From positions 1-56,357 of the IMG/VR virus record IMGVR_UViG_3300037419_000959: a stretch of 56,357 nucleotides of DNA. One strand, given 5' to 3'. The notes beneath the pieces were generated by a model that was not told where the DNA came from, made no database searches, and worked only from the letters and a program-made list of their open reading frames with translations. Below are positions 1,860-56,357 of this stretch, piece after piece. Each line of letters opens with the position of its first letter. The first letter of the stretch is position 1. Origin of the DNA: a virus. Both the position numbers and the translations under genes were made by a program.

Positions 1860-3203
1860 TCACCTGCGTTTCTTTAGATTGGCATGGCCCAGGTTGACCT
1901 TGGGCGCGGGGATGAACAAATGCTCTTCGCGTTTCGTCATGGCCGGGAAGAGCGAAGCCAAGCCCCAGATCATTGCGTCACCACGATCAGGCGATTTCGT
2001 GCCAATGAAGCCGGCCGTGGTGAATGCCTCAAGCTGCGCTTCAAGCTCTGGAAAGTGACCAACCAGCGATATCTTCTGCTGTTCGAACAATGCCGCGATA
2101 GGCTCAGCGCGAGCGACCTTGCCGCGTGATGCCTTGACTTCCCGGAATGGAACAGGCGTTTGCGTTATCCTGGCTCTGTCTGCAGCAGCAGAGCGAACGA
2201 TCTCAGCCACCATTGCGCCGCCGAAGTTCGTCTCGGCAACTACTGCATCTGCTTCATGGCGATCAAACGCCGCGACTATCGCCCTGCCCCACATTGCCGG
2301 CGCCATTCTGCCCGACAGATCCTCAAGCACATAGCCGCGACCGTCCTTGCCGAGCCCGCAAACAACTATGCCGATTTCGTCCGATCGCGTGTCTTCCTCG
2401 CCAGCCACGCCAGAAGGATCAACAGCAACAATGATACGAACCATCTCAGGCACTTTGCCATCAAGGATTCGCTGCTGATCGAGGAGTTCGAGCGACCAGA
2501 GCGCGCTTTCCGATGCATCAGTGAATTGCCCGAGAAGAAAACGTCTGCGTTGCGCTTCCGGAAGATTGCGAAGCTCCTCAAGGAATGTCTCGGAAAGGTT
2601 CTCGGTGTTGTCTGCCGGGTTCATCAGCAGCGCGTTGTAATTGCCCGGGTTCGGAATGGCTGTCTTCCGGTCCGGGTCGCGCTTGTTGATGAAGAGTTGA
2701 TATGTCCAGTGCGCCATGCCTGGAGGATTGCAGTCGTAATAGGCCTTGAGGCGAAGCGGAGTGTTCTGCGCGAGGCGCGTCATTGCCATGTTGCGCGAAG
2801 CCCACGGGATCTGTGAGCATTCGTTCAGATAGATGGTAGCGAACTCTTGCCCCAGGATCTTTTCGGTTCGCTCTTTGTCATCCAGGCCACCAAGCCAGAC
2901 TTCCGAGCCGTTCCAGAACTGGATATAATAATCCTGCCTGTCCAGGCGCCACTTGCCAGCAAGCTCAGGGAAGCAAAGCTCCATGACCTTCGGGAAGGTA
3001 TCCATCCCGATCGATTGCTTGATGTGGTTGAACCGATAGCGGAGGATTGCGTGCCGGCTCTTGTGTGCAATCGCCCGCATGACGGTTGCTCGGACAAAGC
3101 CGAATGTCTTGCCTGAACGAGCGCCACCATAAGCCATGATATGCGTAGCAGCACTGCTCGCCATCTCGACTTGAAGCTTCTGGCGCTTGGTCAATTTGAA
3201 CAA
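1860..3203 (-). CDS. terL: Terminase large subunit
   Basis: 447 aa. Walker A YGGARSGKTF and Walker B-like IYLNEC. C-terminal RNaseH-like nuclease motifs IVAVDPSG, AETNFGG and DRGDAMIWG. Apparent TTG start; the first ATG at 3164 would remove the conserved LTKRQ segment. Confidence 0.9.
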   Translation of the reverse strand: MFKLTKRQKLQVEMASSAATHIMAYGGARSGKTFGFVRATVMRAIAHKSRHAILRYRFNHIKQSIGMDTFPKVMELCFPELAGKWRLDRQDYYIQFWNGSEVWLGGLDDKERTEKILGQEFATIYLNECSQIPWASRNMAMTRLAQNTPLRLKAYYDCNPPGMAHWTYQLFINKRDPDRKTAIPNPGNYNALLMNPADNTENLSETFLEELRNLPEAQRRRFLLGQFTDASESALWSLELLDQQRILDGKVPEMVRIIVAVDPSGVAGEEDTRSDEIGIVVCGLGKDGRGYVLEDLSGRMAPAMWGRAIVAAFDRHEADAVVAETNFGGAMVAEIVRSAAADRARITQTPVPFREVKASRGKVARAEPIAALFEQQKISLVGHFPELEAQLEAFTTAGFIGTKSPDRGDAMIWGLASLFPAMTKREEHLFIPAPKVNLGHANLKKRR

Positions 3204-3286: not shown

Positions 3287-3667
3287 TTACAGTAGGCCGG
3301 CGTCGTCAGCCGCGATGTTGATCGTCACTGATCCAGCAACATCAACATCCAGCTTGTCGCCATACTTCTTGGGCCGCAGTTTTCCAGCGAGCCATTTGCG
3401 CGTATCAATACGAATCCTCGCCTGCGCTGCGTCAATCTCAGGATCATCAGCGATTTCAAGGCATTCCTCGACCAGCGCTTCAGTCTGCATTTCCCTCGCG
3501 CGTGCGTATTGGTTTGCAAATGTGTCATTCTCTGCAAGCCACTGAAACACTCGGCCGCGAGAAGGCATTGCTTCATTTTCGCAAATGCGACGAAGGCTTT
3601 CGCCTGAAATAAGCAGTTGGCAGATTTCGTCTGCGATATCCTGCCTGAAATCAAACGGTCTCGGCAT
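3287..3667 (-). CDS. terS: Terminase small subunit
   Basis: 126 aa from ATG 3667; the track start at 3709 would overlap the upstream gene by 59 nt. HTH-like GESLRRICENEAMPSRGRVFQWL, then IDTRKWLAGKLRPKKYGDK, as in phage small terminases. Directly upstream of terL. Confidence 0.75.
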   Translation of the reverse strand: MPRPFDFRQDIADEICQLLISGESLRRICENEAMPSRGRVFQWLAENDTFANQYARAREMQTEALVEECLEIADDPEIDAAQARIRIDTRKWLAGKLRPKKYGDKLDVDVAGSVTINIAADDAGLL

Positions 3668-3947
3668 CAGCAGGCGCTTCTGTCTGTTCGGTCGGCGCAG
3701 GCTCTTCAACCACCTGCTCGACCACAGGCGCGTTGATTGCCGCCATGACAGCCGCAGTGAGATCTAAAACAGCGATGCCTTCGTTTGCTGCATCTGTCTC
3801 GATGATCGAGCGCTGAGATTGCAGGTCGACGATTGCGTTTTCGAGTTCGGCGAGGGCCTTGGATTGCTTCAAGTCCTCGTCGATCTTTGCGTTGAGTTCA
3901 GTCTGGAGCGGGACGAGTTTGTCCACGTAGTCCTGAAGTGTGCTCAT
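3651..3947 (-). CDS. Hypothetical acidic coiled-coil protein (98 aa)
   Basis: Internal ATG (MSTLQDYVDKLVPLQTELNAK..) of the 174-aa track ORF. The longer form would overlap 3979..4449. Confidence 0.5.
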   Translation of the reverse strand: MSTLQDYVDKLVPLQTELNAKIDEDLKQSKALAELENAIVDLQSQRSIIETDAANEGIAVLDLTAAVMAAINAPVVEQVVEEPAPTEQTEAPADAETV

Positions 3948-5065: not shown

Positions 5066-5289
5066 CAGCACGTCGCCACGTTCGAAATGAACCTGTCCGT
5101 ATTCCATACCTGCTGCAATGGGTCGATCTTGGGCGTGTACTTCAGCAGATCCGAAGGCCACATGCTCGGAACGTTGGCCGTCCGCTTCCAGTTCACCTTG
5201 CCGATCTTGCAATGACGGACGACGGCGTTCAGCCTGTTTTCAAGGCGGCGGTCGCAGGCGGCTTCGTCTTCAACGATTGTGTAGCTCAT
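5065..5289 (-). CDS. Hypothetical protein (74 aa)
   Basis: Internal ATG (MSYTIVEDEAACDRR..) of track ORF 5065..5307. ATGA overlap with the small upstream ORF. Confidence 0.45.
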   Translation of the reverse strand: MSYTIVEDEAACDRRLENRLNAVVRHCKIGKVNWKRTANVPSMWPSDLLKYTPKIDPLQQVWNTDRFISNVATC

Positions 5290-5393
5290 ATGCGCTCCAT
5301 AAACCACTCGAAGATGTCATCAAGCAGGCGAAACGGAGCGGTCAGGCCGGCCATGAAACCGGCTTTGAATGCTTTCCATTCTTCCGTGGTCAT
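5286..5393 (-). CDS. Small ORF (35 aa), candidate first cistron after the late leader
   Basis: Hand translated (below the 60-aa track cutoff): MTTEEWKAFKAGFMAGLTAPFRLLDDIFEWFMERI. AAGGAAGAGG Shine-Dalgarno just upstream. ATGA overlap with the next gene. Confidence 0.35.
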   Translation of the reverse strand: MTTEEWKAFKAGFMAGLTAPFRLLDDIFEWFMERI

Positions 5394-5737
5394 CGGAGCC
5401 TCTTCCTTGCTTGCCCGGTTTTTCAGCGTCACTGCCTTCGATCTGGCCACGGAGAGCGCTGAATACGATTACCGGAAACGGATTGGCTGGAATGGAATCA
5501 GTGAAGGCCGGGCTTGATACCGGCTGGGTTCGTCGGCGGCTGTCCGATCTCTCGGCTTGTGGCGTCGCCAATCTGCTTGCGCATCTGAGGTCAATCCTCA
5601 GCCCGACCCATGTTTGCCTTACCGCGTTTCCTTTAACGCCGCTTCACTGATCTGTGTTGCCCCTATCCCGTATAGAACGGAGGAGCGAAATAAGCTTGGG
5701 CCGTTTTAATCACGTGACTTTCGTCATCAGCGCTATA

Positions 5738-5785
5738 GTTGCGCGTTGCCCAAGATCGTTGCCCATTCGGGCGAATCTGTTGCCC
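5738..5785. repeat. Cluster of direct heptamer repeats GTTGC(G/C)C, with an outlying copy at 5656..5662
   Basis: GTTGCGC at 5738; GTTGCCC at 5745, 5758 and 5779; GTTGCCC at 5656. All in the same orientation. Confidence 0.6.
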
Positions 5786-5810
5786 CGGGACATTACCGCT
5801 CTTCCCGGGG
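5783..5810 (-). promoter_or_regulatory. 8-bp GC-rich inverted repeat (CCCCGGGA-12 nt-TCCCGGGG) in the late leader
   Basis: Read directly. It overlaps the last GTTGCCC copy. Confidence 0.5.
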
Positions 5811-6169
5811 CGTCACAGAGGCTCGGTGCCGTCCCTATGTTATCGGCGTCAAGATGGGCGATCCGGGCTTGCTTCTCTTCAGCGGCTTGATCAAGTTACC
5901 TCGCGATCGAGACGAACCCCGATCCCTTGGAACCGCTGTATGACTTTGGGAGATGGGCCGTTGCCTCGGTTTACCATCACCGGCCATGAGCCGGGCTATC
6001 CCAAACTCTATCCCGCCGACGAGAAATGCATGAGACGTGACAATCGGAATGTAGTCTCACGCGCATTCGGCAGGCAATATTTCCCCAACGCGATTTTTCA
6101 CGCGTCGATGCATGGCGTGGACGAATCCAACTTACGGCCATGAAAATCACTTGCCCTTTATTAACTGCT

Positions 6170-6799
6170 TCAGGCGACTTTTTCAAGTGTTGCTGACAAG
6201 ATATCCCCATTCAACGGGATGGTAATCTTGCCGGCCATGTCCAGCTTTTCCGTTAGCATCTTCAAGCGCGGATCGTTCTTTGCCTTCTTGCGCAGCACTT
6301 GGCGAGCGAGCTTTGACTTTGCGTCGAAGAACTTCTCTGCATCGGCCTCAGCGGCGCGCAGCATGAGGATTTCTTCCAATAGGATCGGCAGCGGAACGCC
6401 GTTCTGATCTGACACGATGCCTTGAACGCCCCATACGTCTCTCAGTTTGCCGAAGTCGGTAGGGTTCTGGACAAAGACATATCCGACCATCAATGCGAAG
6501 CGACGCACCTTCCACAAGTCAGTGTGACGCCGATCACGAAGCAACCTCTTCTCTGCCGGCATATAGCATTGAAAGCCAGATTGCACCAATGATCTCTCGA
6601 CTGCCGAAACATCATGGTCTATGTTCGTGATGATCCTATAGCCTTTGTGGCTTCTCGTCTTTTCCGCGGCATATTCTCGCCTCGGCTTTTGCGATCCTGG
6701 AATGACTGACACCGCAAACCATGGCGTCACTTCCATAGCTGCCAGTTCGGCCCGCTTCCTCGAAAGCATTTCCTCATAAGTTTCCGCCGTACTTGCCAT
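6170..6799 (-). CDS. NusG/RfaH-like transcription (anti)termination factor (NGN domain with insertion)
   Basis: 209 aa. The pattern WFAVSVIPGSQK..VERSLVQSGFQCYMPAEKR..RRFALMVGYVFVQNP..VWGVQGIV matches the NGN layout (W-hydrophobic strand, helix, Y/F-x-P, GYhFV, GV). No clear KOW motif. Last gene before the late leader. Confidence 0.5.
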   Translation of the reverse strand: MASTAETYEEMLSRKRAELAAMEVTPWFAVSVIPGSQKPRREYAAEKTRSHKGYRIITNIDHDVSAVERSLVQSGFQCYMPAEKRLLRDRRHTDLWKVRRFALMVGYVFVQNPTDFGKLRDVWGVQGIVSDQNGVPLPILLEEILMLRAAEADAEKFFDAKSKLARQVLRKKAKNDPRLKMLTEKLDMAGKITIPLNGDILSATLEKVA

Positions 6800-6876: not shown

Positions 6877-7077
6877 TCATTCCTCGCTTTCGTCATATGG
6901 CTCGCAGATCCAAGTCCAACGCTGAATCGTGTTGATCTCTGATTTGCGGCCACATCTGGAGCATTCAAGTTCGTCAAGATCGTCGGCATATTTCCACATC
7001 GCGTCATCCGGCGCGTCGAAAACATGGTGGCAATGAGGGCATTCTGGGCCTTTGTCGTTATAGGTTGATGTGCTCAT
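6877..7077 (-). CDS. Small zinc-ribbon protein (66 aa)
   Basis: CPHCHH...CSRCG cysteine pairs. ATG 7077 is preceded by GAGGTGAGG; the track GTG start at 7086 is less likely. Confidence 0.5.
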   Translation of the reverse strand: MSTSTYNDKGPECPHCHHVFDAPDDAMWKYADDLDELECSRCGRKSEINTIQRWTWICEPYDESEE

Positions 7078-7144
7078 CGTCCTCACCTCAATATGCTCAC
7101 GTTCATCGCGTTACCCTCACTAGGCGATAGCCGCGGAAGCGGGC

Positions 7145-7342
7145 CTATTTTGCCTTTGCTGCTTCACCATAATGCTTTTCCCTGTATATGAGCCGGCCTG
7201 TGACTCTAGACCGGATCGTGTTGATTTCGTCGGCGATATCCGCCAATGTCCTCTTCGCTTCGGCTCGGCGCTTGTCGAGTTCGTCCAGTTTGCGACGTTC
7301 CTGGATTTTGAGATGTTTTCTCCAGTTCCATTTGACGGTCAT
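7145..7342 (-). CDS. Hypothetical basic coiled-coil protein (65 aa)
   Basis: Internal ATG (MTVKWNWRKHLK..) forms an ATGA overlap with the upstream stop at 7339. Confidence 0.45.
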   Translation of the reverse strand: MTVKWNWRKHLKIQERRKLDELDKRRAEAKRTLADIADEINTIRSRVTGRLIYREKHYGEAAKAK

Positions 7343-7890
7343 TGATGCTGTTTCTCCCATTGCTGGAAGGCATGGACGCAGCTCGAATGATCCTTGCAAA
7401 GGAATGCGCCGATGCGAGGAAATGAGATGTCGGGCCTTATTTGCCGGATGCGAACGATGATTTCCCGGCGAGCCATCACAATTTTGCTCGATCTGGCCGG
7501 CGACCGAATTTCATCAAGCGTCACGCCTGGATATTTGTCCATGACAGCATTGGCGATTGCCTCCATGCTAGGCCGACTGTTTTCGTCAGGCTTAGGCGCG
7601 AGTATCTGCACCTCATCGTCGAACGTCTTGGAGATTTCAGCTTTCGTCGAAAAGCCTGTCAGGGACTCCCTAAGCCGCTTCATTTCCAAAGCGCGCTTTC
7701 TTGCATTCCTCGCCGCCTCTAGCCTCGCCTCAATTTCGGCGATGCGGTCTGCCTCCCGGCGTCTGCGCTGCTCCTTCTCGCGCTCTATGGCGTGCTGGTC
7801 AGCGATCAGATTGGTTATTGCAGGCTGACCCCATAGGCGCGCCTTCACCTCAGCGTACGCTTTACTTTGCCGCTGTTGTTCTTCAGTCAT
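7339..7890 (-). CDS. DnaA domain IV-like DNA-binding protein
   Basis: 183 aa from ATG 7890 (ATGA overlap). The C-terminus GVTLDEIRSPARSSKIVMARREIIVRIRQIRPDISFPRIGAFLCKDHSSCVHAFQQWEK follows the DnaA C-terminal HTH pattern (R..i..aR..a.y......S...IG....rDHs.V.ha). Confidence 0.65.
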   Translation of the reverse strand: MTEEQQRQSKAYAEVKARLWGQPAITNLIADQHAIEREKEQRRRREADRIAEIEARLEAARNARKRALEMKRLRESLTGFSTKAEISKTFDDEVQILAPKPDENSRPSMEAIANAVMDKYPGVTLDEIRSPARSSKIVMARREIIVRIRQIRPDISFPRIGAFLCKDHSSCVHAFQQWEKQHQ

Positions 7891-8324
7891 GGCTTCCATC
7901 CCCAAGACTCAAGCGTCTTCTGCGCCTCTCTGTCTCCCGCTAGAGCGCGCTTGAGCGTTCGCAGAAGCCCAAGCATCTTTGCGCGGTGCTCTTCGTCGTG
8001 GGCGGGTAGATCTGGCTTAGGCAATTGGCGTTCGCGCCGGCTTGCGAGGATGCGTGTCTGTTCGGCGCGGACGTAGCTAGCTAGTTCGGGAGCCTTGGGG
8101 CAGAAGTTCTTGCTCGCTTCCTCGATCTTGCCAGCGCGGAGTTTGTCAACTGTCGCCCATATCGCCTCATCAGAGAATTCCGAAAGAGCGAAGCAATAGC
8201 TTTCGAGAATATCCCTCTGCCGCTGCGTCGGGTCTTCCGCGCCGTCGTTCGGTGCCCGCACCGGAAGAGACACCCATAGCTTCTGCAGCGCTTTAATGAC
8301 GCTGGGAGACGTGTGTACGTTCAT
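7887..8324 (-). CDS. Hypothetical protein (145 aa)
   Basis: ORF track. GGAG lies upstream of the ATG. Overlaps the upstream gene by 32 nt. Confidence 0.55.
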   Translation of the reverse strand: MNVHTSPSVIKALQKLWVSLPVRAPNDGAEDPTQRQRDILESYCFALSEFSDEAIWATVDKLRAGKIEEASKNFCPKAPELASYVRAEQTRILASRRERQLPKPDLPAHDEEHRAKMLGLLRTLKRALAGDREAQKTLESWGWKP

Positions 8325-19789: not shown

Positions 19790-20401
19790 ATGGGAACCCT
19801 GAGCGAACTGATCGGAATAGCCCGCGAATGCAAGGGCTGGACACTGCGCGACCTCGAAAAGGCCAGCGGTGTTTCCAATCCGCTGATCTCTCAGATTGAA
19901 ACCGGCAAGGTTCGCGATCCTGGCTTCACCACCGTGATCCGACTTTGCGATGCTCTCGGGATAACTCTTGATCGCGCTGCGACCGCTGAACGCTCCAAGC
20001 TCGATGTCCTGCGAAAGACAGGGGTATGGAAGCCCGAAGAGCCTGGCATAGAGGCAGCCGAGACGACCGAGACGCCGAACATCGATCCTGAATTCATCGT
20101 CATCATCGCTTCGGCTTGGGCGAACGACAGCGGCATAGGCGTCAACTATTCGTTCGATGGAGAACGGTTCAACAATCGCGCCGACGCAATCAAGCACGGG
20201 TTCGAACTGCGCGAATCTGACGATTTCAACATCGGTCATACCTATGGCGACGACCTGATTTGGTTCGGGTGGATGGATGAGCGCATCGACGAGCCGGAAG
20301 AGACAGCCCGAGAGATAGCGGAGCAAATCGGCCTCACCTTCGACCCACGCTGGTACCGGCTCAAATACTCAAAGGCATCTGGGCGAGTAATTGCCGCCTG
20401 A
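19790..20401 (+). CDS. XRE/Cro-C1-type HTH transcriptional regulator with an unknown C-terminal domain
   Basis: WTLRDLEKASGVSNPLISQIETGKVRDPGFTTVIRLCDALG is a classic HTH_XRE segment. 203 aa. Confidence 0.8.
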   Translation: MGTLSELIGIARECKGWTLRDLEKASGVSNPLISQIETGKVRDPGFTTVIRLCDALGITLDRAATAERSKLDVLRKTGVWKPEEPGIEAAETTETPNIDPEFIVIIASAWANDSGIGVNYSFDGERFNNRADAIKHGFELRESDDFNIGHTYGDDLIWFGWMDERIDEPEETAREIAEQIGLTFDPRWYRLKYSKASGRVIAA

Positions 20402-33261: not shown

Positions 33262-33286
33262 GGAAAAGCCGCCTCGGTGGGCGGCT
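33262..33286 (-). terminator. Intrinsic terminator after the SGNH gene
   Basis: The minus strand reads AGCCGCC-CACCGA-GGCGGCT followed by TTTCC. 7-bp GC stem. Confidence 0.6.
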
Positions 33287-33449
33287 GGGGATGGGAGATT
33301 GTGCCGGTCTTTCCCGACTGCCAGACCCCATCACCCTGATGGCAAGGAACCTGCCGAAGCAGGAACGGAATTGAACCGTATTGCTCACTCGATCTCGGTC
33401 AACGAGGCGGAGTCGCACCGCACCACCCTCGGACGCCTTACGGCGAAAC

Positions 33450-34691
33450 TTAGGACTGCCTCTTGTCCACGGCCAAATGCCGCCAGTTCACTGTAGCATT
33501 TCCGGCGCCGGAGAAATAGTGGTTGAACCGCACGGTCCAAAATCCGCGGGTGCCGGGCTGGATAACCACCGGCATGGTGAGGTCGAGCGTTTCGGCTATA
33601 TCTCCCGGTCCTGCGGTGCCGAATGTCGTCGTTGCTGCGGTGAGGCACGAATAGTCAACCGAGTTCGGCGAATTGGTGGATTGGTTATATTCCGACCACA
33701 GTTCGGCGGAAACAAGATTTGTCGCGCCCGACGCAATGGTGCATTGAGCTGAGACGTCGAAGATATCTCCCGGGCTGTCGTTGCCGGCGGAAATGTCCAT
33801 GATCATGCGGCACCGCCCAGCGCCCGTCGAACTCATGGTGAGGATGATGTCTTTCGTCCCGTCCGCATTTGTTGCGCTGGTCAGTGCGCAACTGACACCG
33901 GCATCCACAGAACCGTTCGTCATGCCGGCAGGAGCAGTTCCGGTGAAGCCGCCGATCGTGCCGCCAGAGAGGGTGAGGAAACCCGGATTGCTGAAAATCT
34001 GCAAGCCAAGCGCCGGAGTTTCGCCGCCGAACACCTTGCGGATCGGCAGCGCGGGAACCAGCGGCGTCATCAGCGCGGCAAAGGCGCGGCCGACAGGCAC
34101 AGCAGCGTTCACCAGATAATGCGTGCCATCCGTGGAATAGCCGCTTTTGAAAGCAATCGTAGTTGTCGTGAGATCGAGGATGAGCGCTGCGAGATCGAAA
34201 CATACAACCTGGCCGTTGGCGCGCGAACGGGCCGCATAAGCCTTGACCAGCGAGTTATAGCGCTGAAACGCAGCACGAGCCGCTGTGCTGCCGTTAAGTC
34301 CTGTAGAGCCAGGATCGGTCACGAGGATGACGGTCATGCCAGCCGCAATGAATTGCTCGCAGGCCGGCTTCACGTAATTGATAAACGGGTCGCTTGACGC
34401 GCTCAACGTGATATCGTTGACGATGCCGAAGATCATGACGAACTTGGCGTCGGACGCGATGGCTTGGTTGATATTGGCCTGCGATAGATATTGGTCGGAT
34501 CGCTGTCCCGAGACTGCATTATTGCCGACGACTTTCATCCTCTGGCCCATGCGGGCGTTGGCCTGGTTGAACCAATGCATGCATGAGAACTGATACTGTG
34601 TCGTGACGTCAGTAAAGCCGTTCGCCTGCCGGCTGTCTCCGGTCTGGAAGATATGGTTAGGATGGCGCTGTGCCGCGTCCCATGTAGTCAT
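33450..34691 (-). CDS. SGNH/GDSL-family esterase with a C-terminal beta-rich (carbohydrate-binding-like) domain
   Basis: Block I QTGDSRQANG, block II NNAVSGQRS, block III IFGIVND and block V STDGTHY occur in order. The ~200-aa Gly/Thr/Ser-rich C-terminal half follows. 413 aa. Confidence 0.8.
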   Translation of the reverse strand: MTTWDAAQRHPNHIFQTGDSRQANGFTDVTTQYQFSCMHWFNQANARMGQRMKVVGNNAVSGQRSDQYLSQANINQAIASDAKFVMIFGIVNDITLSASSDPFINYVKPACEQFIAAGMTVILVTDPGSTGLNGSTAARAAFQRYNSLVKAYAARSRANGQVVCFDLAALILDLTTTTIAFKSGYSTDGTHYLVNAAVPVGRAFAALMTPLVPALPIRKVFGGETPALGLQIFSNPGFLTLSGGTIGGFTGTAPAGMTNGSVDAGVSCALTSATNADGTKDIILTMSSTGAGRCRMIMDISAGNDSPGDIFDVSAQCTIASGATNLVSAELWSEYNQSTNSPNSVDYSCLTAATTTFGTAGPGDIAETLDLTMPVVIQPGTRGFWTVRFNHYFSGAGNATVNWRHLAVDKRQS

Positions 34692-34692
34692 G

Positions 34693-34866
34693 TCAGTTGC
34701 TCCGTAGAATGATGACCGGGCCGCGATTGTTCGTCACGACAGCGTTTTTCTGAGTGACGAATTCCCAATGAAGGCCTGCAGGCGCTGGGAATGGGGCGAG
34801 CGCTGCAGCACCGCCGCCGCTCAGAGCAGGCGAGCCAAGGGCTATGCCAATGATGATGTTCGTCAT
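34693..34866 (-). CDS. Small ORF (57 aa) linking the o-spanin and SGNH genes
   Basis: Hand translated: MTNIIIGIALGSPALSGGGAAALAPFPAPAGLHWEFVTQKNAVVTNNRGPVIILRSN. ATGA overlap with the o-spanin stop. Its TGA lies 1 nt before the SGNH ATG. Confidence 0.4.
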   Translation of the reverse strand: MTNIIIGIALGSPALSGGGAAALAPFPAPAGLHWEFVTQKNAVVTNNRGPVIILRSN

Positions 34867-35192
34867 GGCGCTTCCATCTTGGATTTGAGATCACGGTGAA
34901 AAGCGGCGCAGTTATCGATCTGGAGGTCGACCGCATCGGCGTTGAGTTCCCACTGCGCCTGCACCCATCGGAATTTGTCGCCAGTCTTGGGCGTCACACG
35001 GTCCATGTGTTTCGTGCAGGTGGCCGGCTCTTCGGGGATCTGTGGTTTCGCCTGAGCGCGCCCCTGAATGGTCGCCGCCTTCTCGATCCGGGCGTTACTG
35101 GTGACGCACGCCCCAATTGGCATCGTCAGAAGTCCAAGAGCAGCCGTCTGCATTGTCTGCCGCAATGCGCTGCGCCAGTTTGGCATTTGCAT
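34863..35192 (-). CDS. Outer-membrane spanin (o-spanin lipoprotein), overlapped architecture
   Basis: Internal ATG; the alternative is 35153. Signal/lipobox ..AALGLLTMPIGAC. The gene starts inside the i-spanin gene in another frame and extends beyond it. Confidence 0.65.
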   Translation of the reverse strand: MQMPNWRSALRQTMQTAALGLLTMPIGACVTSNARIEKAATIQGRAQAKPQIPEEPATCTKHMDRVTPKTGDKFRWVQAQWELNADAVDLQIDNCAAFHRDLKSKMEAP

Positions 35193-35442
35193 CGTCCTTT
35201 GCTTGGGTGGCGGAAAGTTCTCGCTTGCGCGCTTCTTCGAGAGCCTGTTGCGCGGCCTGCTTATCGTGTGCTTCCTTGGTGGCCTTGGCTTCGGCCGCAG
35301 TCTTCTCAGAGAGCAGGACATAGCCTTGCAGGACGGCGTGATCATGCGAGATCAGCCAGAGCTTGCCGCTGACAATCAGGGCGACGATGAGCATCACGCC
35401 GCCGGCAATCTTGCCAAGCGGTGAGAAAAGGAAGGCGATCAT
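35095..35442 (-). CDS. Inner-membrane spanin (i-spanin)
   Basis: 115 aa from ATG 35442 (ATGA overlap with the holin stop). N-terminal TM IAGGVMLIVALIVSGKLWLI, then a charged coiled coil. Confidence 0.7.
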   Translation of the reverse strand: MIAFLFSPLGKIAGGVMLIVALIVSGKLWLISHDHAVLQGYVLLSEKTAAEAKATKEAHDKQAAQQALEEARKRELSATQAKDDANAKLAQRIAADNADGCSWTSDDANWGVRHQ

Positions 35443-35735
35443 TGCTGGTTCGCTCCGGGTTGCGGCTGCCCGTCGATCGCTGCGGGCGGGTCTTTGTAGG
35501 GAAGGCCAGTCCCCGTGCGCCAAATGGCTGCTACGTCCTGCACGGTGGCAAAGCCGGTATAGCCCAGCACCATTACGGCAATCAGCCAGAGCCAACCCGA
35601 GGCGATTGTCTCGTTGACCTTCGTGTCAGGTGCGCCAATGAGCATTTGAAGCTGGTAGCAGCCCCACGTCACCACCGGATAGATGACGATCCGACGCCAA
35701 GTCCAAGAGGGGTGGCCTGATTTTTCGTCAGCCAT
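35439..35735 (-). CDS. Holin candidate (two TM segments)
   Basis: 98 aa. TM segments IVIYPVVTWGCYQLQMLIGA and IASGWLWLIAVMVLGYTGFA. Lies between the endolysin and spanin genes. Confidence 0.6.
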   Translation of the reverse strand: MADEKSGHPSWTWRRIVIYPVVTWGCYQLQMLIGAPDTKVNETIASGWLWLIAVMVLGYTGFATVQDVAAIWRTGTGLPYKDPPAAIDGQPQPGANQQ

Positions 35736-36307
35736 CAGGAAGCAGCGCCCTCGATCGCGGCCATGAACTTCTTGCCGTAATCCGCAATGGTGTTGGCCTT
35801 ATCCAGCCCGTTGATGATCTTGCGGGCATTCACCCAATCGGCGACAGTGTCATGGAAATAATCGCGGAGCTTCTTGCCCGTGAACGTTCCGTTTTCCATG
35901 CCGAGGAACATAATCTTCGTCGCCGTCTTAGGATCGAGTGCCTTATCGGGATCGTCGGCAAGGCCGAATTTCTGGTAGTTGGCATGGCCTGTGATCTGCA
36001 CCAGCCCCCTGCCCCGATATTTGTAGCCATCGCCATCGGCGGCTGGCGTGTTGCCGAGCCGCGCCGCGAGCGCGCCCGTGTCATACTTGTCGAAATAGTG
36101 CACGCCGCCGAATTCGGCGATCGGCTGCATGTGCTGCGCCGTCTCGTGGTAAGCCGTGGCAAGCATATAGGCCAGCCAGCGGTGATCGGTCAGGCCTTCG
36201 GCGTCCCATTCGTCAAGGATCGCGTCGATGCCGTCAACTTGGGACTGCGTCAGGCGATTTGCAAACAGCGACGTGCGCACGCTGGCGAAGAAGTTCGCGC
36301 GGTTCAT
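35735..36307 (-). CDS. Endolysin, glycoside hydrolase family 19 (chitinase-like lysozyme)
   Basis: LATAYHET (catalytic Glu region) and YRGRGLVQITGHANY signature. 190 aa. Confidence 0.85.
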   Translation of the reverse strand: MNRANFFASVRTSLFANRLTQSQVDGIDAILDEWDAEGLTDHRWLAYMLATAYHETAQHMQPIAEFGGVHYFDKYDTGALAARLGNTPAADGDGYKYRGRGLVQITGHANYQKFGLADDPDKALDPKTATKIMFLGMENGTFTGKKLRDYFHDTVADWVNARKIINGLDKANTIADYGKKFMAAIEGAAS

Positions 36308-36330: not shown

Positions 36331-36352
36331 AAAAAGGCCCCCGAAGGAGCCT
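36331..36352 (-). terminator. Intrinsic terminator (UUCG tetraloop) just upstream of the lysis cassette
   Basis: The minus strand reads AGGCTCC-TTCG-GGGGCCT followed by TTTTTC. 7-bp stem with one G-U pair. On the plus strand the stem has a C-A mismatch and no T-tract follows. Confidence 0.7.
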
Positions 36353-36415: not shown

Positions 36416-37459
36416 ATGGTTGAATCAGCGGTATTTGGACGAAGCAATTTCATTGGCTTCCCTGGCGACGTGGTGCAGAAAGCCACCGAATTTGAACTCA
36501 CTCATGATCGGCCCGGATTTGAGGATCACGAAAATCTATTCTGCTTCCCTGGTGCAGATGCCCTTTACCGCGAAGACGGAACAATCGTCCAATCAAGTAG
36601 ACAATGGTATTTTGCCGAAGGCATGAAGTACCCCGTTCCGACGCATCGAAAAAATAAGTTCGACGCAAAGTCGCAGATGCATAAGGTTCCTACGCCCGGG
36701 TATGATATCGAAACGAGAGAGGTTGCGTTTATAGGGAATATCATCCCCCATTGGGGTCATTTTCTCTATGACAGCCTCGCTAGGCTTTGGGCCTTGTCTT
36801 CTGGCTGTGTAGCCCCGGACCGCGATATTGTCCTTTTCACTAGCAAGTGGCCCCGCGTCCCCTTCGCGGAGCCAATCCTATCTTCGATCGGAATACCCTC
36901 AGATCGTATGAATGCGCCAGCTCGTCCTACCCTGTTTAGGAAAGTCCGCATCTATCTTCCATCGGTGAATGACATGTTCCGGATTTCGACATTTCATGGC
37001 GAAATTCACCGATATATTGCCACGGCCATGCAAACCAACCGAAGATTTGACAGGCCGGTGTTTATTTCCAGATCTGGCCTTGACCGCTCTCTAAAGACAT
37101 TTGCGAACGAAGAAATCATCGAGAAGTTAGCCGTTGAACGCGGCTATGAGGTAATCCGACCCGAAACACTTCCGGTCGGGGATCAAATTGCCCTGTTCTC
37201 GACGTGCCCCTATATCCTTGGTAGTGTCGGGTCAGCGTTTCACAGCATCCTTTTTGAGCCACAAATCGGTGAACGGATACGCGTAATGCTTTGCCCGGTG
37301 AACAGTGGCAGGCGTTTCCCGATGGTTGATGCCGTTTGCCGCGGCCACACATCGCTTTACTTGAATGTTGCGCCCGCAGTCATGGAGCGTAATCAGGTCG
37401 TTCCAATAGACGTCGACAAGACCTTTGAGTATCTAAATAGCCTGCCCTGCGGCTGGTGA
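36416..37459 (+). CDS. Glycosyltransferase family 61 (DUF563)-like protein, antisense to the late operon
   Basis: IIPHWGHFLYDSLARLW, ..PVFISRSGLDRSLKTFANEEIIEKL..GYEVIRPETLPVGDQIALFSTCPYILGSVGSAFHSILF follows the GT61/DUF563 layout. Visibly AT-richer than its flanks. Confidence 0.7.
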   Translation: MVESAVFGRSNFIGFPGDVVQKATEFELTHDRPGFEDHENLFCFPGADALYREDGTIVQSSRQWYFAEGMKYPVPTHRKNKFDAKSQMHKVPTPGYDIETREVAFIGNIIPHWGHFLYDSLARLWALSSGCVAPDRDIVLFTSKWPRVPFAEPILSSIGIPSDRMNAPARPTLFRKVRIYLPSVNDMFRISTFHGEIHRYIATAMQTNRRFDRPVFISRSGLDRSLKTFANEEIIEKLAVERGYEVIRPETLPVGDQIALFSTCPYILGSVGSAFHSILFEPQIGERIRVMLCPVNSGRRFPMVDAVCRGHTSLYLNVAPAVMERNQVVPIDVDKTFEYLNSLPCGW

Positions 37460-39209: not shown

Positions 39210-42101
39210 TTAGCGCCAATCGCCATCGGCCGGGAAATTGATCCCGTCGAATGAAACGTAGTTGAGATCGGCGCCAGGGCCGGAATTGTTGGTACGGTCG
39301 ACATAGACAAGGCCACGATCCGTAGACAGGGCATTGTTCGCGCCAAGGATCGTCACATTGACCGTCAGCCCGTTGGTCCGAGTGCCTACTTTTGCGGCGC
39401 CAGCTGGGACGGCAATCGTCTTGTCTTTCGCCGGTCTCCAACCCTTGGGAAGCTGAAAGGCGGAATTCGAAGCGCCAACGGCGTCGACATCAAAGTCGAG
39501 TCGTCCGTACATGAAGACGCGGCCCGTCCTGTCGCGCTGCAGTTCTATGCCGCCGCCGCGATAGTCGGGAGAAGTTGTCAGATCAACAGGAGTATTTGGA
39601 GGGTTTGCGGCGACATAGGTGCCGGTGGAAAAGCTCCAGCCGGTTTTCAATTGTGATGTGGCAAGCTTATAGATATCCAGTCCGCCAGCATTGGCTGTCG
39701 CCCCGCCGCCTTCCATGAGGGCTTGTTGAGGGGCGCGGCTATCGATGACTTCAATGCCGAAGATTTGGCCGTAGTTGGAATCGCCGCTGTAACTGGTGAG
39801 GTTGTCGATCTCGCAGCCGAAGAAATAGATTGCCCGCTCCAGATTTGGCGTATGCCCGGATATCGCGGTGTTGATCGCATCGGCCGGAGGCGTGATCGTC
39901 ACCCAACTGCCAACGCCAACGCCTGGGCCGCTCTGGGATGTCTTGGCTCCATTCCAATAGGCCCGCCCCATTTCGGAAATCTTGAAGGCGTCCACGCCGT
40001 TCGTGAAAACTTCATCGACATCCGCGTCAAGCAGATAGATACGCAACGATGCCCTGCGTGCCGGCTGAGTGCGCTTCTTGTCGTCGGTGCGCTCGCAACG
40101 GGCCGCGAGAATACGTCCGTTGCAGATCGTGAGCGGCGTGGGCTCGTCCCAAATCTGACCACCATAGCTATCCGTGGGGCGCACGAGATCGAAATCGAAG
40201 GTGGCTAGATTATCCGTCGACCACCAGAATTTCGAGCGCGCATCGCTGTTGGTATCCTCGTCTGCGGTTAAGTCAATATCCGTGCCACGGCAGAACCCGC
40301 AGAGGCGCCCCGAGCCTGCATTGACAATCGTGCCTTCATTGCCAGCGAACCCCATATAGGCAATTGTCGGGGCTATGGAATACAGTGAATTGTACCGAAC
40401 GACATGCATACCCTGTGCGCTGCCGAGCGTGGTCAGGATGTCGCCGTTATCCGCAAGAGCGAAGGAATGCTGATAACGCAATGAGCCAGAGGCAAGCGTG
40501 ATGGAGGGCCATAGCGCTTGATAGACAGCGTCCAGCGTAGACGTGATGTCCACCATGGTGAAATCGCCATCGCTCGCGTCCTGAAGGTCACAGGTGGTGA
40601 CAAGATCGCCGGAATCGAGATTGGCATTGCCGGATGTCGTGAACTCGAAATATGCCGCAGTGGCATTCGTGATCGCGACTGTATTGCTGATCAGCGTGGT
40701 GTTGTTGATCGTGCCGCCCGCTACCATGTCGACGCCGTTGATCACAAGCACCGGCATCGTGACCACATCGCCAGCAAAATAGCCGTGATCGGTGAGGTAA
40801 ATGCGAATTTTAGCCGCGCCGTTGAATGTGCGCGCATTGCAGCTAGAGCGGATTTTCCGATAGTCTGCAAGCTTCCGATGCCAGATCGAATAGCTCCGCA
40901 CCGTCCCATCGGTGAGATAGAAATACGGGAATAAAACCTGCCGGCCGCCGCGGTTGACGCCAGCCGCCATACAGGTGAGGTTGTCGTTGTTGCCCGTGCG
41001 CGTGGTTTTGAAGCCGGTCTCGGGACGCAAGATGACTTCCGGAAAGCCAAACGATGTCCCGCCATCAACCGAGCGCTGCATTACCAGCATGTTGTCTGCG
41101 GAATGGTGACCACTGCCGACGACGTAGGGAACGAAGATGGCCCCATGCGGGCCGATATGGGCTTTGTCCTGAGCCCATTTGCAGTATTTGTTGAGCCCCG
41201 TCATGCGGAAGGCGCGGAAGCGATAAGTGCCTTCCGTGGGGACGCCGACTTGCAGGATTTCCTGCTTACCGTTCCTATAGCGGTTGCCATCCTGCCATGT
41301 CGTGACGGGCGTGCGTAGACCGCCCATATCGATTGCGAGGCCGCTTAGCTCGCTTTCGAGCGTAGTAAATTTTGATGTCTGGTCGCCGGTCTCGTTGATG
41401 CCGTAGAGGGGCAGCACAGCGGGATAGAATTCGTTGAGCATCCCGACATGAGAATCATCGTTAAGCGTGTTGTCGCCAACCGTGCCATCACCTGGAGTAT
41501 TGACAGTACGAGTGGCGAGCACATGTCCGTAGACCGCGTCTAAAGACGTGGGAAGTGGGCTGATCGCGAGACTGAAAGTCGTGCCAGAAAACGATAGGTC
41601 AGCCGGATTAATTGCCCGGCCATTGACATAAACGATCAGCGCCGCCTTGGACGGGATCGTCGCGCCAGTTTCATATGGGCCGGCCCCGGCGCCAGCGAGA
41701 TCAAACAGCGTAGGCGTCGGATCATAACCGAAGATGCCGGCCGCCGAGAAGGCGAATGCCGTTGTGCCAAACGCGATGGGGTCCGCATTGGCGACGGTGA
41801 ACGTATCATATGGCTGAGAACCGCGGTTTGCCACAGAGACGCGCGTACCCTGCACGACGTCGTCATTGCGCGAGAAATCCGCCGAACGTGTCCACGGGCC
41901 TGTGTCGACGTAGTAAATGCCGTTGTCGCGTGCATCCGTCTGGCTTCGAACAAGCACACGGTCGCCAACATTCAAGGCGATGCCATCGATCGTCTGGACG
42001 CCCTCAAGCACGATATTGCTTGGCGTAGAGACGCGGACAGGGCCTTTCCAGGCGGCAGCCGAGGAGAGCCCGGCGGCGCGGTCAAAAACAGTGCTTGTCA
42101 T
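39210..42101 (-). CDS. Large tail fibre/tailspike with BNR/Asp-box (sialidase-like beta-propeller) motifs
   Basis: 963 aa. N-terminal VRVSTPSNIVLEGVQTIDGIALNVGDRVLVRSQTDARDNGIYYV is a common tailspike head-binding-type segment. Asp-boxes SVDGGTSF and STDNLATF. Confidence 0.75.
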   Translation of the reverse strand: MTSTVFDRAAGLSSAAAWKGPVRVSTPSNIVLEGVQTIDGIALNVGDRVLVRSQTDARDNGIYYVDTGPWTRSADFSRNDDVVQGTRVSVANRGSQPYDTFTVANADPIAFGTTAFAFSAAGIFGYDPTPTLFDLAGAGAGPYETGATIPSKAALIVYVNGRAINPADLSFSGTTFSLAISPLPTSLDAVYGHVLATRTVNTPGDGTVGDNTLNDDSHVGMLNEFYPAVLPLYGINETGDQTSKFTTLESELSGLAIDMGGLRTPVTTWQDGNRYRNGKQEILQVGVPTEGTYRFRAFRMTGLNKYCKWAQDKAHIGPHGAIFVPYVVGSGHHSADNMLVMQRSVDGGTSFGFPEVILRPETGFKTTRTGNNDNLTCMAAGVNRGGRQVLFPYFYLTDGTVRSYSIWHRKLADYRKIRSSCNARTFNGAAKIRIYLTDHGYFAGDVVTMPVLVINGVDMVAGGTINNTTLISNTVAITNATAAYFEFTTSGNANLDSGDLVTTCDLQDASDGDFTMVDITSTLDAVYQALWPSITLASGSLRYQHSFALADNGDILTTLGSAQGMHVVRYNSLYSIAPTIAYMGFAGNEGTIVNAGSGRLCGFCRGTDIDLTADEDTNSDARSKFWWSTDNLATFDFDLVRPTDSYGGQIWDEPTPLTICNGRILAARCERTDDKKRTQPARRASLRIYLLDADVDEVFTNGVDAFKISEMGRAYWNGAKTSQSGPGVGVGSWVTITPPADAINTAISGHTPNLERAIYFFGCEIDNLTSYSGDSNYGQIFGIEVIDSRAPQQALMEGGGATANAGGLDIYKLATSQLKTGWSFSTGTYVAANPPNTPVDLTTSPDYRGGGIELQRDRTGRVFMYGRLDFDVDAVGASNSAFQLPKGWRPAKDKTIAVPAGAAKVGTRTNGLTVNVTILGANNALSTDRGLVYVDRTNNSGPGADLNYVSFDGINFPADGDWR

Positions 42102-42121: not shown

Positions 42122-42146
42122 AGAAAAAGGCCCTCGAAGGAGCCTT
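42122..42146 (-). terminator. Intrinsic terminator between the internal-virion genes and tail fibre genes (near-twin of 36331..36352)
   Basis: The minus strand reads AAGGCTC-CTTCGA-GGGCCTT followed by TTTC. Shares GAAAAAGGCCC(T/C)CGAAGGAGCCT with the 36.3-kb element. Confidence 0.65.
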
Positions 42147-45300: not shown

Positions 45301-45500
45301 TAAGGATCATAGACAGGGTCGATCTTTGTTAGATCGTGAACGTCATAATCCAGCCGCGGATTTGCTATGGTTGACACGACGGAATTGCTCTGGCGGAGAG
45401 CGGCACCCATGCTCTGCATAAATGATAGCGGCGGCTGATCGTCAGGCGTATAGCCGACATATCCAGCATCATCGAAGGTAACGGACTTGTTGAGCGGCAT
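42384..45500 (-). CDS. Internal virion (core/ejection) protein, large (1038 aa)
   Basis: Size and position (after the SLT-containing protein, before the fibres) match the T7-type gp15/gp16 class. No enzymatic motif recognised. Confidence 0.55.
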   Translation of the reverse strand: MPLNKSVTFDDAGYVGYTPDDQPPLSFMQSMGAALRQSNSVVSTIANPRLDYDVHDLTKIDPVYDPYKDIKGYEEYAPLFEHVYNQTADTALKQQIDQSRKDQQTLAQSGWTGTLLNFGASVIDLPTLIPGGALVRGGKIGFDALKSALAVGASAGLSTAIQETALQANQPTRTPEESAFAIGGSTILGGLLGAGLSKFFTHGEWNQVSKSLEEDLSGEVANPNAVVEQMVKRAQAAGAQSVDDIAPTLQEMGVGGPRAAQIVANATAAARLSPGIRTMLSPSAKVREIYLKMVDNPIYTTMNMEGKTLGADVENLVKTYTRGAYGDWKRLADEQYLRYRQSLGQNAITSRFPATGETLSKTQFLERVAQAGRRGDLDSAGNEFITNTAKAAREKVFDPLFERAKAEGLLPDDVKTTTAASYVTRMWNREKLIGEEPRFRQIAREYFTNELDKIEALQKADKEAPKTPDFVSEADKKDYIEGVISDVFNNLTGKGNGDIPEWVVPTVRGPLKERTFNIPDAKIEDFLHNDMAHILQRYSRLMAADIELNKRFGRPDMKEQFDQVAKDYEQLRAEAKTPIERVKLDEAEVKDVKHLKAFRDMARGTYRTADRSSGWNAITKAALTWNYMRLLGGVTLGSLTDAARIPMVHGLRATMKEALPILTSRVNGIRAIKIAKQDAKELGAVAESVMQHRLASMADLNDPYRFGNRFERYLDNTANAFTKMTGIGWWTDMMNTISAVMTENRVLKNSMNWGKIDKREKAYMAYLGIDEDMAQRIAEQFNKHGVTDQGIHGGNVSEWDDDLARRAFGAALNKDTDRTIVKPGMGDVPLWMKTNTGRLLTQFKSFGVASHQRVLIAGLQERPRRLMEGMVLGTAVGMMIGYLKMIERGDYDKANNLLQNPGKWVGDGLDRAGIFYLPFDVSNTADKVSASLGGPNTSISSIFSRIAGDKDHSGAPTRYASRDPIGAVAGPTAGLFSDLATILAAVSRHQLSKVDSETPDITASQKRGAIDAALRQIPGSALPGIRTMINAGVKPALQ

Positions 45501-55963: not shown

Positions 55964-56221
55964 TTACTGCCTCTTCTTCACCTTCTCCAATGCGGCTGCA
56001 TCCTTCATGCGGGCAACCTGCAGACCAACGTTCCTTTCTCCCTCCAGAAAGGCCGTCTCTCTGTCCGTAGGCGCGAAACTCGATTGTCCAATGTGGCAGC
56101 AGTTGAGCAGTAGCCACTCAATGGCGCGCTTCTGCTGATCCTCTGTGGCCTTGCCTTCGAACAAGGCGCGGAAGGCGTAGACAATGCCCTCGTCGTAAGG
56201 AACGGGCGTGGTTACGTTCAT
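55964..56221 (-). CDS. Small conserved protein between portal and scaffold (85 aa)
   Basis: ATGA overlap with the portal stop. ..AIEWLLLNCCHIGQSSFAPTDRETAFLEGERNVGLQVARM resembles the small protein found at this position in BPP-1-like podophages (recollection, low confidence). Confidence 0.55.
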   Translation of the reverse strand: MNVTTPVPYDEGIVYAFRALFEGKATEDQQKRAIEWLLLNCCHIGQSSFAPTDRETAFLEGERNVGLQVARMKDAAALEKVKKRQ

Positions 56222-56357
56222 TGTGCAGGAGCCGCGCTAGGTGCGCCACCAGGGGCAAGGCCGGCCTGCTGTAGAGCCTGTGTGCCTTCGCCGACATTCT
56301 TGGCCGTGAGACCGCCCGCATTGAGCACCTGTGCTGCCTGGGCTAGCTGTGCTGCCT
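56218..56357 (-). CDS. Portal protein C-terminal end (same gene as 1..1652; 56231..56357 duplicates 1..127)
   Basis: In-frame continuation ..AP AQ TGA (stop at 56218..56220) after the repeat. Confidence 0.8.
   Translation of the reverse strand, partial: AAQLAQAAQVLNAGGLTAKNVGEGTQALQQAGLAPGGAPSAAPAQ
56231..56357. repeat. Terminal direct repeat, right copy (identical to 1..127)
   Basis: Read directly, 127 of 127 identical. Confidence 0.97.

Follow-up and report, generated by a model that had tools for sequence, protein, structure and literature searches.

In the IMG/VR virus record IMGVR_UViG_3300037419_000959, of which we analysed positions 1 to 56,357 (56,357 nt in full, hereafter the window), a gene for a specialised NusG paralog is followed on the minus strand by an untranslated leader of 775 nt, after which the late genes begin. 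Our main finding is that one conserved non-coding module lies 3' of this paralog gene in about 35 prophage loci of the Hyphomicrobiales. The module combines a putative late promoter at the 3' end of the gene with an RNA element of ~90 nt, whose base-pair covariation supports an RNA fold. We read the element as a promoter-proximal loading site for a dedicated processive antiterminator, following the logic of RfaH, UpxY and LoaP, and hold this reading with a little more confidence than doubt; binding, loading and read-through are what we infer from the comparative evidence given below.

The product of the paralog gene has the NGN fold of NusG and lacks a KOW domain. In Pfam, its residues 64-146 matched PF02357 (NusG NGN) with 27.5 bits (cut-off 22.2); KOW families gave no match at E<=0.1. 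PHROG 25909, labelled 'transcription antiterminator', was matched at 1.6e-48, and a profile search of the PDB returned T. maritima NusG and RfaH at E values of 0.02-0.03. The AlphaFold (AF2) model, with a mean predicted local distance difference test score (pLDDT) of 75, predicted the NGN core together with an inserted beta-hairpin (residues 42-59), a disordered basic loop (88-100) and two C-terminal helices (141-175 and 177-186), which occupy the place of the KOW barrel; there is no beta-barrel in the model. All of the top 15 matches of a Foldseek comparison with the PDB were NusG or RfaH, with modest E values (~1e-2). The first of them was autoinhibited RfaH on an ops-paused complex, and the N-terminal domain of E. 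coli NusG aligned to the model with a TM score of 0.63 (target-normalised) and a root-mean-square deviation of 3.2 A. A preliminary description of this DNA had proposed an NGN layout with an insertion and no clear KOW motif and had suggested structure prediction and a profile search; both found the NGN fold, and the Pfam match, the AF2 model and Foldseek agree with that layout.

More than 170 homologues of the paralog were found, mostly at 50-65% identity and named NusG or antiterminator in their sources, which are Hyphomicrobiales genomes and prophages (Shinella, Pararhizobium, Sinorhizobium, Rhizobium, Chelativorans and Antarcticirhabdus). Among the named sources are Sinorhizobium meliloti and S. 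medicae, Pararhizobium antarcticum (locus L002) and a Shinella (locus L001). Their alignment contains an invariant basic segment, EKRLxRDRxxT..K.RRFAL.VGY.F, and a second conserved basic segment near the C-terminus, ARQ.LRK.AK.DPRLK. Many relatives open with M-x-WFAV, and an alternative shorter start at 6736 is possible in the window. No curated NusG-paralog family of NCBIfam fits the protein: at E<=1 only UpxY (NF033644) was listed, with 14 bits against a cut-off of 100, and the RfaH model was absent from the matches at that threshold. No LoaP family was matched in the same listing, for which it was not checked whether the library holds a LoaP model. The paralog is thus a member of the NusG superfamily that falls outside RfaH and UpxY by the tests applied. 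The gene call itself is not new, because databases already label the protein as an antiterminator.

To compare the DNA around the gene, we fetched 44 related loci encoding family members and added six by exact protein look-up (loci are designated below by L numbers). A sizeable stretch 3' of the paralog gene in which no open reading frame (ORF) scores is common among them, ranging from ~130 to ~1400 nt. When the 1.2 kb downstream of the gene were compared all against all by blastn, only the first ~130 nt proved to be widely shared. This segment holds the module, which reads, in order, TTGA(A/C)N, a spacer of 16-18 nt, an AT-rich -10, a further 7-9 nt and (G/C/T)TGATTT(G), followed by a hairpin core GGGAU-N-CGUCCC, a hairpin of free sequence, GGGAAAAUGCAYCC or GAGAAAUAUUGCC, and (A/G)A(A/G)UU. 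TTGA(A/C)N often follows a C and often contains the TGA stop of the paralog gene.

The first part of the module has the pattern of a sigma-70-type promoter, TTGAnn-N16-18-AT-rich -10, often overlapping the stop codon. A TTGNNN -35 was located 36-39 nt 5' of TGATTT in 28 of 32 related sequences, and an A-rich position 2-3 nt before TGATTT is the probable start site. TGATTT itself lies 33-44 nt past the stop codon in most loci. The corresponding site of the window (Table 1) was missed by a generic consensus promoter scan. We considered whether the -35 is conserved merely as a by-product of Ala-Ala-stop codons, and rejected this explanation. The -35 was kept in loci where the stop is not TGA or comes earlier (L010, L018, L076, L122), and promoter and element move together where a small ORF intervenes (L005, L007, L011, L023, L027). 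Since the -35 is independent of the stop codon and travels with the element, it is best read as part of a promoter and not as a trace of coding.

The second part of the module can be described as a ~90-nt RNA with a stem P1, a hairpin P2 (GGAU-N-CGUCC with a UNCG-type loop) and a variable hairpin P3, in which P1 is formed by GAUUU(GG..) paired with (..CC)AAAUU. Unconstrained minimum-free-energy folds of several single members gave the same Y shape. We built a covariance model (R1) from 12 seed sequences, in which only P1, P2 and three pairs of P3 were specified. Over 470 kb of related genomes, searched on both strands, R1 gave 30 matches at E<1, one per locus, all in the sense orientation and 3' of the paralog gene, and 18 of the 30 were not seed sequences; no match was found elsewhere. 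A second model (R2) added L034 and L023, with weak matches at the expected place in L008 and L076.

Pairing in the R1 alignment exceeded that of the controls: standard pairs filled 93.5% of cells, compared with 84.8% in shuffles and at most 60% with slid partners. Ten of the 18 pairs showed changes on both sides, and none of 500 shuffles reached any of the five measures. In the outer stem of P2, the column pair 34/57 appeared as GC, CG, GU, AU and UA and was paired in 100% of cases; the core GGAYNCGUC is conserved, and the N of its loop takes all four bases. All four modelled P3 pairs had changed on both sides, and every relative carries a hairpin of different sequence at the equivalent position. 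P1 was paired in 97.3% of cells, with five pairs varying on one side only. On its TGATTT side there was one A-to-G change at one position, and the partner side showed only exchanges between A and G or between U and C, which preserve the pairs. Run on a plain MAFFT alignment, RNAalifold predicted the outer stem of P2, supported by compensatory changes; P2 was the only part recovered, because the variable-length P3 was misaligned. The G-U pairs and the UNCG-type loop with its free N, both on the sense strand, point to an RNA and not a DNA operator. The preliminary description had guessed that the recruitment element is not a known one and may be RNA, and had called for covariance analysis of the leader across relatives. 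The promoter-proximal, covarying element in ~35 loci strengthens that guess.

Outside this family the element has no described counterpart in the sources searched. Rfam 15 gave no gathering-score match over the window, and at E<=10 it listed only YrlA (24.7 against 69 bits, 6010-6073) and Twister-P5 (15 against 37.6 bits), neither of which is relevant. A hammerhead or other ribozyme, suggested by UGA...GAAA at a three-way junction, was rejected, as no Rfam ribozyme matched and the conserved nucleotides lie inside stems. A loose DNA pattern run over IMG/VR returned 34 stretches, 22 of which adjoin a paralog gene; the others were chance matches in coding regions of unrelated phages, or lay at the edge of a stored stretch where a paralog gene could not be checked. 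In the full text of the literature we found no description of the paralog's mechanism or of the element. A distant NusG-like gene stands in matching synteny in the record of phage phiLM21 (DnaA-like, NusG-like, HNH, tRNA-Met, terS), and the phiLM21 paper does not discuss it.

The copy of the element in the window appears to be a divergent variant, which we identified by its position, its shared blocks and its architecture and not by a model score. Only two short chance matches were obtained when the leader was compared by blastn with the first 44 related loci, and for this reason homology was read by eye and by pattern. The three-block pattern TGATTT-N5-30-GGATNCGTC-N25-55-AAATATTGCC occurred once in the window and never in 100 shuffles, and among 123 loci it occurred only at bona fide elements of L006, L011 and L064. 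GGGGAAAUAUUGCC lies between P3 and GAAU-G-CGC in the window copy. When the search was confined to 5950-6250, the 300 nt where the element is expected, R2 scored the copy at E 0.033. The locus L075, whose protein is 83% identical, carries a near-identical copy, and in the variant of L076 (67% identical) P3 and the outer stem of P2 persist with changed sequences.

Table 1. Coordinates of the features discussed, in the window unless a related locus (L number) is given.
Feature	Position	Strand	Description
NusG paralog gene	6170..6799	-	209 aa; NGN domain with inserted beta-hairpin and basic loop; basic C-terminal helices; no KOW
Promoter-like site	6159..6187	-	-35 CTTGAA 6187-6182 in last codons; spacer 16-17 nt; -10 TTAATA 6164-6159; predicted start ~6152-6151
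Leader RNA element, putative divergent variant	6061..6151	-	position, three shared blocks, architecture
TGATTT box	6144..6149	-	5' strand of P1; nearly invariant in family; candidate non-template-DNA recognition or pause site
P1	5' strand GUGAUUU 6150-6144 with GAAU-G-CGC 6068-6061	-	GUGAUUUU from 6150
P2 hairpin	6111..6142	-	outer CAUGGC/GCCAUG; asymmetric internal loop; inner UGGA/UCCA, UUCG loop; core GGATTCGTCC 6128-6119
P3 hairpin	6086..6107	-	CGACGCG-UGAAAAAU-CGCGUUG
Junction box	6073..6082	-	AAAUAUUGCC, family variant of GAAAUGCAUCC
Conserved hairpin	6018..6060	-	GUGAGAC-N17-GUCUCAUG then CAUUUCUCGUC; kept in L075, L076; missed by terminator scan
Closed RNA domain	5942..6008	-	GAGUUUGGGA ... 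UCCCAAAGUC; helix 5942-5951/5999-6008; encloses CCGGC-UCAUG-GCCGG; inverted repeat I5
Closed RNA domain	5880..5938	-	CAGCGG/CCGCUG; helix 5880-5885/5933-5938, direct reading; closing helix kept, interior diverged in L075, L076
Variable segment	5656..5811	-	perfect 9-bp GC-rich hairpin 5782-5811 and GGGCAAC x4; diverged from L075 except last copy
Conserved block and domain	5497..5691	-	block 5691-5652 (...CUAUACGGGAUAGGGGCAACACAG), then domain closed by perfect 10-bp helix 5651-5642/5506-5497 (I2)
Conserved 5' untranslated block	5395..5490	-	helix CAGCG/CGCUG (I9); ~95% identical to L075 despite unalignable flanks
AGTTTGGRAT sites	window 5999-6008; L001 7009; L004 7048; L021 6717; L043 1778; L075 8729, 9133; L121 3750; L122 2351; L123 1193		
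First late ORF	5286..5394	-	35 aa from ATG at 5394; Shine-Dalgarno AAGGAAGAGG; codon score
terS	3287-3709	-	Pfam; small ORFs precede
terL	1860-3203	-	Pfam
Capsid gene	54028-54864		across the junction, in late unit
Internal intrinsic terminator	42127..42146	-	AAGGCUCCUUCGAGGGCCUU and UUUCUAU; intergenic, between ORFs 42384-45500 and 39210-42101; canonical stem and T-run
Internal intrinsic terminator	36335..36352	-	AGGCUCCUUCGGGGGCCU and UUUUCAUU; intergenic, canonical; before ORFs 35735-36307, 34863-35345 and GDSL esterase
GDSL esterase	33450-34691		in late unit
Terminator-like hairpin	33262..33290	-	followed by TTTTCC, 3' of last gene; end of late unit; direct reading

In the mechanism that we propose, the paralog gene, the promoter and the element RNA would form a three-part module that governs the change-over to late transcription. 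The KOW-less paralog, consisting of the NGN domain, the basic loop and a basic C-terminal helix, would be supplied by the gene that ends the early/replication operon. A promoter of the host sigma-70 type overlapping the 3' end of this gene would start the transcript 2-3 nt before TGATTT and produce the ~90-nt RNA first. The paralog would be captured at this promoter-proximal site through the nascent P2 hairpin (as LoaP), through exposed non-template TGATTT (as RfaH and UpxY) or through both, the two readings of specificity not being mutually exclusive. P2 would be recognised perhaps by the arginine-rich loop or the C-terminal helix, and recognition of the non-template strand would explain why the TGATTT side of P1 is invariant. 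The NGN domain would then bind the clamp of RNA polymerase and the paralog would stay on the elongation complex, excluding host NusG and, with it, KOW-assisted Rho termination, and suppressing hairpin-dependent pausing and termination. This would carry the polymerase across the 775-nt leader and through the two intrinsic terminators inside the late unit (42.1 kb and 36.3 kb). A long untranslated transcript is of the kind that Rho terminates, and a factor that displaces NusG would therefore be useful on this leader. A broader suggestion, to which we give somewhat less than even credence, is that the module represents a third switch for antitermination of phage late genes beside the Q-type and the N/put-type. 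Here a KOW-less paralog, common in temperate phages of Hyphomicrobiales, would be loaded by a 5'-terminal three-helix RNA made from a promoter fused to its own gene, and the modified polymerase would also express tRNA and small-RNA cargo.

Several observations weigh against this interpretation. The window copy was not detected by R1, and over the whole window R2 gave it 10.8 bits (E 6.1), equal to two chance matches. It is not more stable than its shuffles (z +0.75), and its variant is common to only two close relatives, L075 and L076. A scan of IMG/VR for the window-type core GTTGGATTYGTCCACGC gave 42 loci, all of them chance matches in coding regions of unrelated phages. Within the family, covariation was scored on an alignment fitted to the model, the inner stem of P2 can be paired in more than one register, and in the variant class GGGAYNCGUCAC this stem contains a G-A mismatch. 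R2 found no element at L003 or at the distant NusG-like gene of phiLM21, which suggests that the protein may not strictly need the element. Canonical terminators speak in part for the interpretation: two lie inside the late unit of the window, one stands directly 3' of the element in L010 and in L014, and 5 of 38 loci have one no more than 400 nt away, where ~1.6 would be expected (0.04 per 400 nt). Against it, most loci have none in the leader, and terminator-like sites in the late unit show no excess (19 versus 18.1 in shuffles). Rhizosphere metatranscriptome contigs from two libraries match 5397-5474, 5652-5691, 5992-6048, 6104-6329 and 6402-6552 at 90-97% identity. They are short, sparse and of low depth, map no start site, and in several cases have unrelated flanks; they may mean that relatives are transcribed in situ, or that the libraries contain DNA.

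Some of the same evidence is compatible with recruitment through DNA. RfaH reads ops, and Bacillus NusG reads TTNTTT in non-template DNA. NGN domains are thus known to read the non-template strand, and UpxY adds pause hairpins (PMC11685472). The paralog could likewise recognise TGATTT in a promoter-proximal paused complex, with the hairpins acting only in pausing or escape or as stabilisers of the 5' end. TGATTT is invariant while its P1 partner varies freely within wobble rules, an asymmetry that points to a sequence constraint beyond pairing. However, TGATTT would lie at ~+3 to +9, where sigma is normally still bound, and the covarying stems, like the equally invariant GGAU-N-CGUCC core with its UNCG-type loop, have the appearance of an RNA ligand; RfaH, moreover, has nothing that corresponds to the basic C-terminal helix. 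Recruitment by DNA with the RNA in a subsidiary role therefore strikes us as unlikely, if worth keeping in view.

We rate lower the explanation that the RNA acts without the protein, as a put-like cis antiterminator, a 5' stabiliser or a signal for tRNA or small-RNA processing, while the paralog replaces host NusG generally late in infection. The put RNA of HK022, a two-hairpin promoter-proximal RNA that needs no protein, is a precedent; tRNA genes directly follow the element in L002, L004, L009, L031, L041 and L076, and the leader of the window is a chain of closed RNA domains. Nevertheless, the gene, the promoter and the element pass on together as a single unit in genomes that are otherwise very mosaic, which is hard to explain unless they work together, and the covariance model matches nowhere else in the related genomes searched. 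A DNA operator without RNA function, bound by a phage regulator such as the DnaA-C-domain protein encoded upstream, has very little probability in our view. A DnaA_C gene does recur just 5' of the paralog gene, and operators usually sit in the promoter-proximal region, with which the element overlaps. But an operator would conserve sequence, whereas the compensatory changes observed keep pairing as the sequence shifts. G-U pairs of the sense strand would read as A-C in its complement, and the loop is of the UNCG type with a free N.

To our knowledge, RfaH, UpxY and LoaP are the only specialised NusG paralogs for which target finding has been worked out, and the loading site proposed here resembles each of them in part. 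As with RfaH and ops, a specialised NusG paralog would be recruited at a specific site in the long leader of a horizontally acquired operon, and the exclusion of NusG by the NGN domain of RfaH, which suppresses Rho and pausing, is proposed likewise here. The differences are that RfaH has a fold-switching KOW C-terminal domain where long basic helices are predicted for the paralog, and that the present site is promoter-proximal with conserved RNA structure. In the leader, ops (GGCGGTAGnnTG) was found only with two mismatches, at 6128-6139; there are 59 such matches in the window versus 45 expected, a chance frequency, in line with the absence of a canonical ops element reported earlier.

For antitermination, LoaP depends on a small hairpin that the 5' leader RNA forms ahead of an intrinsic terminator (dfn, Bacillota; PMC12691694). 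The conserved, covarying leader hairpin described here is in an equivalent position; by contrast, LoaP has a KOW domain and serves secondary-metabolite clusters, and here a three-helix RNA is located at the extreme 5' end with an invariant TGATTT. UpxY proteins, NusG paralogs each specific to one locus, find a paused complex by way of its non-template DNA, with the assistance of hairpins in the nascent RNA (PMC11685472). Unlike our paralog, UpxY is encoded by the first gene of its target operon (Bacteroides capsule operons, with opsX) and has both a KOW domain and an anti-factor, UpxZ.

Among phage systems, the lambda Q/PR'-qut-tR' arrangement is similar in its late promoter, promoter-proximal loading site, attenuating leader and regulator gene just upstream. 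The fold of Q is unrelated to the NGN fold found here, its loading relies on a DNA site together with a sigma-dependent pause, and qut has no covarying RNA helices. Within the Hyphomicrobiales, the Q-like BrrG controls a capsid operon with a long leader in the Bartonella gene transfer agent (GTA) (10.1101/2024.11.20.624540). HK022 put is likewise a nascent RNA with several hairpins, made close to the promoter where long phage operons begin; it requires no phage protein, and the element here has no sequence or Rfam similarity to it.

Overall, only ~90 of the 775 nt of the leader appear to belong to the family-wide element, and the rest reads as a mosaic of lineage-specific RNA domains. The untranslated stretch covers 5395..6169, up to the ATG at 5394. 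On neither strand did any ORF in 5451-6169 score above zero for codon usage, and the GC signal by reading frame was flat there. Small ORFs on either strand (134, 78, 77 and 50 aa) were rejected as genes, having neither a coding signal nor a tblastn match in relatives. The sense strand of the leader folded better than its shuffles (z -3.19, 0/20) and the antisense strand did not (z -0.91). The earlier claims of no credible ORF for about 775 nt, and of GC-rich stem-loops with a heptamer cluster, hold in light of these scores, the 5782-5811 hairpin, the closing helices and the four GGGCAAC copies. Compared with L075, near-identical blocks (6200-5935, 5691-5652 and 5490-5395) alternate with segments that cannot be aligned.

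The hairpin at 6018..6060 with its U-rich tail is a candidate weak terminator or pause, and the only one in the leader. GGGCAAC, which occurs 11 times in the whole window, is present in the leader at 5785-5779, 5764-5758, 5751-5745 and 5662-5656, all in the sense orientation. Three of these four copies are spaced 13 and 21 nt apart, and only the 5656-5662 copy is common to L075; the cluster may be a protein-binding array. At the position of the 10-bp helix, L075 has a different closing helix, AGUUUGGAAU/AUUCCAAAG, which is built on the AGTTTGGRAT motif. The 36-nt block 5652-5687 reached a depth of 42 in a DNA metagenome. The motif AGTTTGGRAT was present in 11 loci, always in the sense orientation and 3' of the element at variable distance (a match in L073 comes from the L004 contig in reversed orientation). 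Its pairing partner is an AUYCCAAAG further 3', with which it closes RNA domains of 50-135 nt with variable interiors, which may be excised small RNAs or processing stems. The 5395-5490 block, recognisable in L076 with an A-U to C-G change in its CAGCG/CGCUG helix, may be a translational or stability element.

In several relatives the slot directly 3' of the element is taken by tRNA genes. These are tRNA-Met(CAT) in L002 (6719-6796), L004 (6758-6827), L009 (1154-1230) and L041 (6742-6818), a tRNA with the amber-reading CUA anticodon, called Pyl by ARAGORN, in L031 (6774-6847), and tRNAs Thr and Gly in L076 (8693-8768 and 9225-9298). ARAGORN found no tRNA or tRNA-like sequence in the leader of the window, whose only tRNA is Phe at 20186-20260 (-). 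The tRNA genes of the relatives suggest that the late promoter drives a variable stable-RNA cargo before the first protein gene.

The window originates from a soil metagenome, according to public sequencing runs. Its ends, 1-200 and 56158-56357, repeat each other over 100-200 nt, from which we take the genome to be circular and ~56 kb in size. A 590-aa minus-strand ORF spans the end junction and is probably the portal gene. No GenBank phage gave a blastn match to the leader region. On the circular genome the late unit extends over ~29 kb of the minus strand and, besides the genes of Table 1, encodes an SLT/VanY protein and a beta-helix protein; Pfam agrees with the earlier reading that terS and terL follow the gap. 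The preliminary description had also listed four terminator-like hairpins that polymerase must read through. Those at 42122 and 36331 are canonical and internal, with same-strand genes downstream of both, and the one at 33262 closes the unit after its last gene; that at 53667 does not qualify, as 53700-53660 forms a 9-bp GC hairpin without a U-run. The leader does stand at the head of the late unit, as had been described. The paralog gene, placed at the head along with it, fits better as the final gene of the replication/regulation operon upstream, because the promoter-like site overlaps its 3' end.

Some neighbouring genes deserve mention. Directly upstream of the paralog gene, 6877-7086 (-) encodes a 69-aa protein with two CxxC pairs and only weak zinc-ribbon matches; small ORFs occupy the equivalent slot in L075, L076 and L120. 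Further upstream, 7339-7905 (-) encodes a 188-aa protein with a C-terminal DnaA helix-turn-helix (Bac_DnaA_C, 5e-10). Homologous genes, or genes with a like domain, are found just 5' of the NusG-like gene in L009, L023, L025, L075, L120, L122 and phage phiLM21. Activators of the GafA type, from alphaproteobacterial GTAs, carry a DnaA_C-like domain, and the 188-aa protein could serve either to initiate replication or, as a DNA-binding protein, to activate the late promoter. A gene of the BrnA antitoxin family adjoins the small terminase gene on the opposite strand in L075 (11833-12141), L076 (13482-13739) and L121 (4273-4542). Within the late unit of the window, a plus-strand ORF of 347 aa (36416-37459) is embedded among minus-strand genes, with the strong minus-strand terminator at 36335-36352 just outside its start. 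Late transcription would run antisense through this ORF, which may therefore be a moron or a gene expressed in lysogeny.

The known specialised NusG paralogs (RfaH, UpxY, LoaP, TaA and ActX) come from chromosomal and plasmid operons. The features that are new here are the phage context, the KOW-less architecture and the structured RNA fused to a promoter. How each such paralog finds its target is the question on which this case bears, and it offers a phage-borne paralog with an NGN domain only, a compact cis element that can be defined by sequence, and many natural variants for the study of covariation and specificity. If the proposed mechanism is true, the protein would be a minimal NGN-plus-helix system for structural work on RNA- or DNA-guided loading, and promoter, element and factor would make a portable cassette to express long, terminator-laden operons in rhizobia. 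For the phages themselves, it would explain the timing of late genes in many temperate phages of Alphaproteobacteria.

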